64,000 nucleotides of DNA from Escherichia coli (lineage in GTDB: Bacteria; Pseudomonadota; Gammaproteobacteria; Enterobacterales; Enterobacteriaceae). This document shows positions 46,462-46,660 of this stretch, one piece after another. Numbering within the stretch: position 1 is the first letter of the stretch; each line of letters starts with the position of its first letter. The stretch is from NCBI RefSeq assembly GCF_003334785.1, contig NZ_QOWV01000002.1; one strand, given 5' to 3'. Made by a program: the position numbers and the translations under genes. The notes beneath the pieces were generated by a model that made no database searches, was not told the origin of the DNA, and was given only the letters and a program-made list of their open reading frames with translations.

Positions 46462-46660
46462 TGCCGGATAAGGCATTTTACGCCGCATCCTGTGCCTGAT
46501 GCGACGCTGGCGCGTCTTATCAGGCCTACAAATCCGAGCCGTAGGCCGGATAAGGCGTTCACGCTGCATCCGGCACCCGGAGCCTGATGCGACGCTGGCG
46601 CGTCTTATCAGGCCTACAAACCGAGCCGTAGGCCGGATAAGGCGTTTACGCCGCATCCGG
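46462..46660. repeat. Cluster of REP elements (BIME) between nrdA and nrdB
   Basis: At least four copies of gcctgatgcgacgctggcgcgtcttatcaggcctac / gccggataaggcgtt(t)acgccgcatccggc motifs in alternating orientation. Confidence 0.75.

Follow-up and report, generated by a model that had tools for sequence, protein, structure and literature searches.

The multi-REP cluster between nrdA and nrdB of Escherichia coli is the catalogued BIME-2 REP164a-e and probably modulates expression of the operon

Ribonucleotide reductase (RNR) is an alpha2-beta2 enzyme. In the E. coli DNA analysed here (the window, a stretch of 64 kb), the genes for its two subunits, nrdA and nrdB, are separated by a cluster of repetitive extragenic palindromic (REP) sequences. 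This raises the question of what the cluster is, and whether it influences the expression of the two genes relative to each other. The operon is read from the minus strand and contains the following features, with positions given as those of the window.

46671-48956, minus strand: nrdA, class Ia ribonucleotide reductase alpha, 761 aa (NCBIfam NF006578, 1644 bits; ORF translation; K-12 annotation)
46673-46671, minus strand: TGA stop codon of nrdA
46438-46670, minus strand: nrdA-nrdB intercistronic spacer, 233 nt (same as the K-12 MG1655 sequence)
46445-46448, minus strand: Shine-Dalgarno sequence of nrdB, AGGA, 7 nt 5' of the ATG (unpaired in the predicted fold)
45307-46437, minus strand: nrdB, 376 aa, with its true start at ATG 46437-46435 (NCBIfam NF006576; K-12 annotation)
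45053-45307, minus strand: yfaE, terminal gene of the operon, the start of which overlaps the nrdB stop

The spacer (46438-46670) was 100% identical to positions 2347151-2347383 of E. coli K-12 MG1655. Scanning of both strands of this spacer revealed no promoter-like and no terminator-like sites, and an intrinsic terminator was therefore rejected. The REP stems lead into CUAC or into a linker, with no U run after them. The blank scan would weakly support co-transcription of nrdA and nrdB. In the literature, nrdAB is described as a single transcript that contains REPs (PMC12306157). In addition, nrdB has its own Shine-Dalgarno sequence, and the ACAGGAC around it is common to every E. coli allele and to most Enterobacteriaceae. 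Taken together, the scan, the literature and the Shine-Dalgarno sequence are consistent with transcription of the REP cluster within the operon mRNA.

The initial annotation had placed at least four REP units at 46462-46660. We found a cluster of 202 bp (46461-46662) with five units in alternating orientation, y-z2-y-z2-degenerate y. Listed in the order in which they occur in the mRNA, with the free energies of the hairpins in the sense RNA, the parts of the cluster are:

46628-46662, plus strand (the strand reading 5'-GTAG): REP-a, y type, 35 nt, -21.3 kcal/mol
46618-46627, no strand: linker of 10 nt separating the foot of REP-a (GTAG/CTAC) from that of REP-b, an inverted repeat
46581-46617, minus strand: REP-b, z2 type, 37 nt, with GTAG on the mRNA strand, -22.4 kcal/mol
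46576-46580, no strand: linker of 5 nt joining REP-b and REP-c at their GTAG-distal ends
46541-46575, plus strand: REP-c, y type, 35 nt, -16.8 kcal/mol
46530-46540, no strand: linker of 11 nt from the foot of REP-c to that of REP-d, an inverted repeat
46493-46529, minus strand: REP-d, z2 type, 37 nt, -21.9 kcal/mol
46461-46490, plus strand: REP-e, degenerate and y-like, about 30 nt, truncated, -12.1 kcal/mol

E. coli REPs are known as y (35 nt), z1 (29 nt) and z2 (37 nt) types, with one conserved internal mismatch and a GTAG foot (PMC8266576). The units in the nrdA-nrdB spacer had such lengths, folded into a stem, an internal mismatch and a second stem, were located outside genes and had dispersed copies elsewhere; the GTAG/CTAC foot was present in REP-a to REP-d. 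They belong to the GTAG-footed, RAYT-associated repeat family. REP-e had lost the foot (AAT instead) and its outer stem is truncated in K-12; this unit looks decayed. The arm matching the truncated stem of REP-e is intact in E. albertii. A REP core pattern gave five matches in the 64-kb window, three of them within the cluster, with 0.00 expected (100 shuffles). A query of 433 nt matched a median of at least 34 places per E. coli genome, indicating that the REP units are part of a dispersed family.

In a BIME-2, y REPs alternate with z2 REPs in inverse orientation, and the copy number differs by locus and by strain (PMC3333891). The cluster showed this alternation of y and z2, had short linkers (10, 5, 11 and 2 nt) and was present in tandem copies that varied between strains. 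TRF described it as 1.9 copies of a repeat with an 87-nt period and 96% matches. A BIME-1/IHF element was rejected, because there is no long L linker with an IHF site. The cluster is the BIME-2 already catalogued in K-12 as REP164a-e (EcoCyc naming), a name that in the literature implies five units. It is the same element, without any difference from the K-12 one, whereas the alleles of other strains do differ. It is also listed in Table DS3 of Sutormin et al. 2019, in the entry 'BIMEs2 ... 202 ... nrdA>-nrdB>'. As a discovery the cluster therefore has little weight, being catalogued and used in published work. The lists in the RepRanger supplements do not include nrdA (PMC12306157), and full-text literature searches for repetitive extragenic palindromic together with nrdB, or for Term-seq of nrdA and nrdB, found nothing.

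The REPs also affect how nrdB is called.

46438-46668, minus strand: spurious extension of the nrdB ORF, 77 codons, from TTG 46668 (open frame across the REPs)

The extension is in frame with the nrdB ATG, and 22 of its 77 codons (29%) encode arginine. Since the frame is open all the way from TTG 46668 into nrdB, the long ORF could be thought real, giving NrdB an arginine-rich N-terminal extension, but the chance of this is close to nil. The NCBIfam equivalog NF006576 covers exactly residues 1-376 from ATG 46437 (808 bits, profile positions 1-376 of 376), a Shine-Dalgarno sequence precedes this ATG, and the DNA upstream is repeat DNA that other alleles and species either lack or have in a different form. 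On these grounds the N-terminal extension was rejected. It is artefactual, arising where the reading frame stays open across the REPs, and the initial annotation was right to blame an arginine-rich pseudo-ORF for the over-extension of nrdB. Caution is needed in annotation, as open frames across REP clusters result in arginine-rich pseudo-extensions, nrdB being an example.

Prediction of the RNA structure and comparison of REP copy numbers among strains had been suggested as checks in the initial annotation; both were performed. The sense RNA of the spacer folded at -120 kcal/mol (z = -6.5), and none of 200 shuffled sequences was equally stable. In the operon mRNA the cluster is predicted to form five hairpins, of which four are strong (-17 to -22 kcal/mol) and one is weaker (-12 kcal/mol). 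REP-a, which reads UGCCGGAUGCGGCGUAAACGCCUUAUCCGGCCUAC in the mRNA, has a stem that starts at 46661, leaving 9 nt to the nrdA TGA, which ends at 46671. At the other side of the cluster, the last REP hairpin ends approximately 12 nt before the nrdB Shine-Dalgarno sequence, which is predicted to be unpaired. As summarised in PMC12306157, Liang, Rudd and Deutscher (2015) described that the terminating ribosome is stalled by a REP at most 15 nt from a stop codon; stalling at such REPs is associated with cleavage of the mRNA and tagging by tmRNA, resulting in less upstream protein. At 9 nt, REP-a falls within this distance, and the nrdAB REP transcript is cited in the RepRanger paper (PMC12306157) as a previously reported stop-proximal case. 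This is the one RNA-level role that we found cited for the locus, and its mechanism differs from the stabilisation or attenuation suggested in the initial annotation.

We estimate the probability at roughly 75% that REP164a-e is a BIME-2 in a transcribed spacer that partly uncouples nrdA from nrdB, in a modulatory and not an essential way. The hairpin of the stop-proximal REP-a would slow termination at nrdA and so trim the output of NrdA. The stack of hairpins would form a barrier to 3'-to-5' exonucleases that guards the nrdA segment, and at the same time may attenuate read-through into nrdB-yfaE in a leaky, possibly Rho-assisted manner. NrdB would then be translated from its own ribosome-binding site.

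A similar arrangement exists between malE and malF, where the intercistronic REPs are barriers to 3'-to-5' exonucleases, as Newbury et al. reportedly described in 1987. As in nrdAB, the REP hairpins are located between two cistrons, and more upstream than downstream mRNA would be expected. However, because RNR is an alpha2-beta2 enzyme, a large imbalance between NrdA and NrdB is not obviously useful.

REP325, located in the yjdMN operon, stabilises the upstream mRNA and is a partial Rho-dependent terminator. Upon its deletion the yjdM/yjdN mRNA ratio went from 35 to 1, with the upstream mRNA down and the downstream mRNA up, and its attenuation is sensitive to inhibition of Rho. Like the nrdAB cluster, REP325 is composed of tandem y+z2 units in the spacer between two genes. 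However, it has six repeats of two units compared to 2.5 in the nrdAB cluster, the order of the units relative to transcription is inverted between the two, and the effects of REP325 are known from its deletion. Furthermore, the gene downstream of the nrdAB cluster is essential, unlike in the case of REP325, so that any attenuation must be leaky. Genome-wide, the expression of tandem gene pairs separated by REPs is biased to the upstream gene. A 2026 preprint reported that the effects of REPs depend on context and that half-lives are not uniformly altered. The suggestion in the initial annotation, that the cluster sets the alpha:beta ratio of nrdAB by stabilising the mRNA or by partly attenuating transcription, is plausible by a fair analogy with REP325.

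The number of REPs at the nrdA-nrdB site was 0, 3, 4 or 5 among E. coli genomes. Spacers with REPs (3-5 units) had a length of 233, 226, 241, 189 or 145 nt. The alleles of 145, 226, 233 and 241 nt differed by whole y+z2 units or by linker variants, such as a UCCGGGU versus an ACAG context at the linker between REP-b and REP-c; unequal recombination between the y+z2 units of 87-88 nt would change the size of the cluster. The 189-nt allele was y-z1-like and common. Also common was a spacer of 88 nt without REPs, present in 1685 of 5426 complete E. coli genomes (31%). This spacer contains another dispersed repeat in place of the REPs, which we take to be boxC or a boxC-like repeat with G/C runs; no boxC-type pattern occurred in the 64-kb window. 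Megablast matched the 88-nt allele at nrdAB only; with sensitive blastn the median number of matching places per genome was 16. The predicted fold of this allele was not significant (z = -1.2), and the distance from the nrdA stop to its hairpin is about 29 nt, outside the stop-proximal rule to which REP-a conforms. One NrdB protein accession was found with different spacer alleles. Given the REP numbers of 0, 3, 4 and 5, with none in 31% of the genomes, any effect on expression must be dispensable or tunable. The five spacer architectures, one of them free of REPs, in combination with essentially unchanged NrdA and NrdB, provide a natural experiment on whether intercistronic REPs determine the subunit stoichiometry of this essential enzyme, and whether they do so by stalling, a decay barrier, attenuation or gyrase.

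Among the Enterobacterales spacers of at least 42 nt, from a set of 79 genomes, 58 of 70 folded with z < -2. Of the 64 spacers with a hairpin, as located by a simple perfect-stem scan that is crude, under-calls terminator-like stems and misplaces the first hairpin in E. albertii, 49 had the first one no more than 15 nt from the nrdA stop; the hairpin sequences were unrelated between genera. Most Enterobacterales outside E. coli had an unrelated strong hairpin directly 3' of the nrdA stop. In E. albertii the stem of REP-a showed one compensatory change, from C-G to U-A. Kosakonia, Cedecea, Buttiauxella and Rahnella had terminator-like hairpins 1-28 nt past the nrdA stop, a position like that of the E. 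coli REPs. However, each of these is one GC stem with a U-tract behind it and lies outside the repeat families, whereas a U-tract is absent from the E. coli REPs. In Photorhabdus, Xenorhabdus and Providencia the spacers were just 12-17 nt and without a hairpin. Together with the 88-nt allele, these short spacers show that the structure is dispensable for a working, essential RNR operon. Considering the variable REP number in E. coli and the unrelated hairpins elsewhere, an effect on alpha:beta would be plausible and tunable, but not essential.

A tentative and rather doubtful extension of these data is that selection across the Enterobacterales maintains a functional slot for a stable stem-loop directly 3' of the nrdA stop, and that this slot has been refilled repeatedly by elements of unrelated kinds, such as genus-specific REP/BIME units, a boxC-like repeat and plain terminator-like hairpins. 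If this were the case, the REP polymorphism of E. coli (5/4/3/0, the hairpin being located more than 15 nt from the stop in the 31% of genomes with the non-REP repeat) would be a natural dial on the alpha:beta ratio of RNR, and hence on dNTP supply. The cluster may then also fence off an antisense transcript containing yoaM, described below.

The variation at this site could also mean that the cluster is a neutral passenger, i.e. selfish or hitch-hiking palindromic DNA in a permissive non-coding gap, growing and shrinking by recombination without a selected effect on RNR. It has 0, 3, 4 or 5 copies in one species, 31% of the genomes carry a different dispersed repeat, the NrdB accession remains the same across different alleles, the GTAG of REP-e is gone, Morganellaceae have only a 12-17-nt spacer, and variability of BIME-2 copy number by locus and strain is known (PMC3333891). 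We consider this possible but unlikely, in view of the unrelated hairpins after the nrdA stop (z < -2 in 58/70, within 15 nt in 49/64), the expression bias at REP-separated tandem pairs genome-wide, and the gyrase cleavage and REP-dependent translational control that have been reported for the locus. The gyrase data in turn allow for a main role on the DNA, as a strong, transcription-independent gyrase site for topological relief or insulation in an essential operon with high expression, with the RNA hairpins as a by-product. For the nrdA-nrdB BIME-2, in which DNA gyrase cleaves in vivo, Table DS3 gives 2 Topo-Seq cleavage sites with ciprofloxacin (Cfx), 3 with rifampicin plus ciprofloxacin (RifCfx), 0 in the Micro set and 3 with oxolinic acid (Oxo), and a remark in this table quotes 'Espeli, Boccard 1997: 2 cuts'. 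Topo-Seq also showed that BIME-2s are enriched for gyrase cleavage, with a higher signal when transcription was blocked. The BIME-2s at sucC-sucB and tldD-yhdP share their composition and in vivo gyrase cleavage with the one at nrdA-nrdB; however, they have more cleavage sites and are the sole loci singled out in the main text of the Topo-Seq study. Gyrase cleaves just a subset of BIME-2s, the REP-free 88-nt and y-z1-like 189-nt alleles are common, and other genera have simple hairpins or terminator-like stems instead of a BIME-2, which makes a main role on the DNA a little less likely still than neutrality.

Two further explanations concern RNA from the opposite strand or small RNAs from the units.

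46436-46471, plus strand: yoaM (b4779), small ORF of 11 aa antisense to the nrdB start (K-12 annotation)

Weaver et al. found that a yoaM-lacZ fusion is translated and located an antisense transcription start site (TSS) 174 nt 5' of yoaM, at about 46262 on the plus strand. The TAA stop of yoaM falls within REP-e. The cluster might thus terminate or stabilise an RNA that starts inside nrdB and contains yoaM, sparing nrdA. In agreement with this, the plus strand folded nearly as well as the sense strand (-113.6 vs -117.1 kcal/mol), and the sole Rfam match above threshold was on the plus strand, namely RF02564 (naRNA4) at 46544-46614, with 76.4 bits against a gathering score of 59.5. The yoaM peptide, however, is not conserved between spacer alleles (11, 44 or 5 aa), and such an antisense barrier is improbable. 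The same match, with weaker matches on both strands, could indicate that the units are processed, as naRNA4, to HU-binding small RNAs that condense the chromosome. However, RF02564 in effect models one y+z2 unit of REP325, so that any BIME-2 would match, and the inverted order of the units compared to REP325 places the above-threshold match on the antisense strand. The matches on the operon sense strand had only 41.4 and 34.3 bits, below the threshold, and according to the 2026 preprint the nucleoid is not measurably compacted by REP325/naRNA4. With sense matches below threshold and compaction disputed for REP325 itself, a naRNA4 function is very improbable and was rejected.

Elsewhere in the 64-kb window, further REP copies were found at 53426-53508 and 45005-45045, the latter at the end of the nrdA-nrdB-yfaE operon.

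45005-45045, minus strand: REP165, single degenerate REP at the 3' end of the operon (weak Rfam match; sequence)

REP165, so named in the supplement of the 2026 preprint, opens with GTAG approximately 7 nt past the yfaE stop.

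The genes nrdA, nrdB and yfaE lie on the minus strand of the window, each with an NCBIfam equivalog match far above cut-off. The nrdA TGA is separated from the nrdB ATG by 233 nt (46438-46670), identical at every base to positions 2347151-2347383 of E. coli K-12 MG1655. Reading the mRNA strand unit by unit, we mapped five REP units in this spacer, at 46461-46662, which bears out the initial annotation of a multi-REP BIME of at least four units at 46462-46660. In mRNA order the features are:

46671-48956, minus: nrdA, 761 aa
after the nrdA stop, minus: 9 nt of unique sequence
46628-46662: REP-a, y type, 35 nt, then a 10-nt linker
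46581-46617: REP-b, z2 type, 37 nt, then a 5-nt linker
46541-46575: REP-c, y type, then an 11-nt linker
46493-46529: REP-d, z2 type, then 2 nt
46461-46490: REP-e, truncated y-like unit without GTAG foot, then 12 nt
46445-46448, minus: nrdB Shine-Dalgarno AGGA, then 7 nt before the ATG
45307-46437, minus: nrdB, 376 aa
45053-45307, minus: yfaE, 84 aa

As judged from the sequence, the cluster sits in the spacer of the operon, which is probably transcribed, with the REP-a stem starting 9 nt past the nrdA TGA. Neither a terminator-like site (stem plus U-tract) nor a promoter-like site was called in the spacer. A mechanical ORF (45307-46668) starts at a TTG within it and places 77 codons, 22 of them for arginine, ahead of the true nrdB ATG; this had been ascribed to a frame running through the REPs, and rightly so. 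An arginine-rich extension of NrdB was ruled out as an artefact, because the NrdB profile match from the ATG spans residues 1-376 of 376, a Shine-Dalgarno precedes that ATG, and the upstream sequence is repeat DNA that other strains and species lack or have in a different form.

E. coli REPs of the y (35 nt), z1 (29 nt) and z2 (37 nt) types are imperfect palindromes after GTAG with a conserved internal mismatch (PMC8266576), and a BIME-2 combines y and z2 units, inversely oriented and joined by short linkers, in tandem copies of strain-variable number (PMC3333891). All features of these descriptions were found in the cluster, except in REP-e, which in K-12 has lost GTAG and the outer stem. The cluster has no long IHF-binding linker, the defining feature of BIME-1. 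The element is already known: nrdA is entered with "REP164a-e" in a 2023 paper, and Table DS3 of Sutormin et al. 2019, a gyrase Topo-Seq study, reads "BIMEs2 ... 202 ... nrdA>-nrdB>". The span delimited here is likewise 202 bp. RepRanger (PMC12306157) cites the nrdAB REP transcript as a case reported earlier, in the study of REPs that lie no more than 15 nt past a stop codon and stall the terminating ribosome.

The sole relevant Rfam model, RF02564 (naRNA4), was derived from REP325, the BIME-2 between yjdM and yjdN. Its score was 76.4 bits (gathering score 59.5) for the plus strand, which is the antisense strand of the operon, and 41.4 and 34.3 bits for the sense strand. Relative to transcription, the y/z2 order in nrdAB is inverted compared with REP325, and the antisense match tells only of this inversion; it is no evidence of an naRNA function, which is disputed even for REP325 (2026 preprint).

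The REP core pattern matched five times in the 64-kb window, three times within the spacer, against 0.00 matches expected from 100 shuffles. Tandem Repeats Finder gave a period of 87 nt (1.9 copies, 96% matches), and identity between the two y+z2 units is 93-94%. Searched against 5426 complete E. coli genomes, a 433-nt query had a median of at least 34 matching places in each, in keeping with a dispersed repeat family. The predicted fold of the sense spacer RNA (-120 kcal/mol, z = -6.5; none of 200 shuffles was equally stable) consists of four strong hairpins and one weaker, the first 9 nt from the nrdA stop, and leaves the nrdB ribosome-binding site free. Folded singly, REP-a to REP-e gave -21.3, -22.4, -16.8, -21.9 and -12.1 kcal/mol.

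The locus was present in all 5426 complete E. coli genomes. Among 60 of these, taken at even steps along the identity ranking, the spacer measured 233 ± 1 nt in 25, 88 nt in 19, 145-146 nt in eight, 189 nt in six and 226 nt in two, which are not population frequencies since laboratory K-12 strains abound in the collection. One set of sequences was fetched per length class. Five REPs were found in the 233- and 241-nt alleles and, with a different middle linker, in the 226-nt allele (O157:H7, O55:H7); the 145-nt allele has three, with one y+z2 unit less, the 189-nt allele four, and the 88-nt allele none. The comparison of REP copy number among strains proposed in the initial annotation thus gave a range of 0 to 5 at this site. 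The 189-nt allele (L004:301-489 in E. coli FHI_NMBU_03; by length also LF82 and UPEC132) carries a y / short z1-like arrangement, with LF82 as example, and so represents a different BIME type at the same locus in some lineages. A single NrdB accession, WP_000332036.1, was found with the 145-, 88- and 189-nt alleles. With these natural alleles of an essential operon, the function of intercistronic REPs could be tested cleanly.

The 88-nt allele occurs in 1685 of the 5426 genomes (for example L003:301-388, E. coli ECO2947). Its 55-nt core, CCCCTCTCCCCTTGCGGGAGAGGGTTAGGGTGAGGGG, is a dispersed repeat with C and G runs, present at a median of 16 and a maximum of 30 places per genome, which we take to resemble the "boxC" repeat. 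The predicted fold of this spacer is no more stable than those of its shuffles (z = -1.2), and its 9-bp hairpin begins about 29 nt past the nrdA stop.

Among GTDB species representatives, a single scan yielded 80 Enterobacterales loci; 79 were analysed. E. albertii has a 240-nt spacer with five REPs and the same flanks as E. coli, indicating that the BIME allele is older than the split of the two species; its REP-a stem carries one compensatory change, C-G to U-A. Citrobacter, Klebsiella, Pluralibacter, Pseudescherichia and others have a single pair of their own REPs. At the same site, Pseudocitrobacter (L010, L012) and Phytobacter (L020) carry full copies of the G/C-run repeat, which agree with the 88-nt allele of E. 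coli in their 3' end and in the sequence beyond it, and related sequences occur in Cedecea sulfonylureivorans and Enterobacter sp. BIGb0383.

In Kosakonia, Cedecea, Buttiauxella and Rahnella the spacer holds one GC stem followed by a U-tract. This intrinsic-terminator-like arrangement was seen in L017, L021, L024 and L026 (Kosakonia and a MAG), in L030, L031 and L036 (Enterobacter sp. Ag1, Cedecea, Buttiauxella) and in L069, L070, L073 and L084 (Rahnella); as nrdB is essential, read-through would need to be substantial in those genera. In Serratia the GC stem lacks a clear U-tract. The longest spacer observed, 322 nt in Pectobacterium betavasculorum (L054:1179-1500), apparently carries an insert of about 210 nt inside the hairpin after the nrdA stop, judged against the 110-nt spacer of its relative L052. 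Spacers of 12-17 nt with no hairpin were found in Photorhabdus, Xenorhabdus and a MAG (L065, L068, L072, L074, L078, L079, L085) and in Providencia (L077, L081), so a structured spacer is not universal among Enterobacterales.

For the folds of the 70 spacers of at least 42 nt, z against shuffles was below -2 in 58 and below -3 in 36, and in a crude perfect-stem scan the first hairpin began no more than 15 nt past the nrdA stop in 49 of 64 species with a hairpin. These figures are suggestive of selection for a stem-loop after the nrdA stop, and not proof, as the species are non-independent and the analysis covered nrdA-nrdB spacers only.

We propose that the cluster partly uncouples the nrdA and nrdB cistrons. 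It would slow termination on nrdA, form a barrier past nrdA to 3'-to-5' exonucleases and cause leaky attenuation ahead of nrdB, which would then be translated from its own Shine-Dalgarno. REP325 shields the mRNA of the upstream gene, yjdM, and attenuates, in a partly Rho-dependent manner, read-through to yjdN, and tandem gene pairs separated by REPs show a genome-wide bias to the upstream gene, with large scatter. The suggestion in the initial annotation, that the REPs can act as stabilising stem-loops or partial attenuators and set differential alpha:beta expression, appears reasonable in this light; it leaves out the published stop-proximal and gyrase roles.

Any effect of the cluster must be modulatory, since operons with no REP here, or with hardly any spacer, are common and viable. 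The strongest of three alternatives is that the BIME is a neutral passenger, which we consider possible, if doubtful. Slightly less probable is a primarily topological role: the cluster is cleaved by gyrase in vivo, with 2 sites for Cfx, 3 for RifCfx, 0 for microcin and 3 for oxolinic acid (Sutormin et al. 2019), and Table DS3 remarks "Espeli, Boccard 1997: 2 cuts".

A role as barrier for an antisense transcript is improbable. The antisense strand of the cluster folds nearly as stably as the sense strand, and one further feature lies opposite the nrdB start:

46436-46471, plus: yoaM (b4779), 11-aa small ORF in the K-12 annotation

It overlaps the nrdB start codon in antisense, with its TAA stop within REP-e. 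A yoaM-lacZ fusion is translated, and antisense transcription starts 174 nt upstream of yoaM (Weaver et al.). We placed this start at about 46262, and a transcript from there must cross into the REP cluster. The REP alleles give a yoaM ORF of 11 aa, the 88-nt allele one of 44 aa and the 189-nt allele one of 5 aa, and this lack of conservation within E. coli argues against a conserved protein function.

Elsewhere in the window one single REP was seen at the 3' end of the operon, following the yfaE stop, between the convergent yfaE and inaA:

45005-45045, minus: REP165, single degenerate REP with a weak Rfam naRNA4 match

A second y+z2 BIME pair, at 53426-53508, also lies between convergent ORFs, 49652-53404 (plus, 1250 aa) and 53532-54302 (minus). 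By position, these two and the 875-aa ORF at 54401-57028 are presumably yfaL, ubiG and gyrA.
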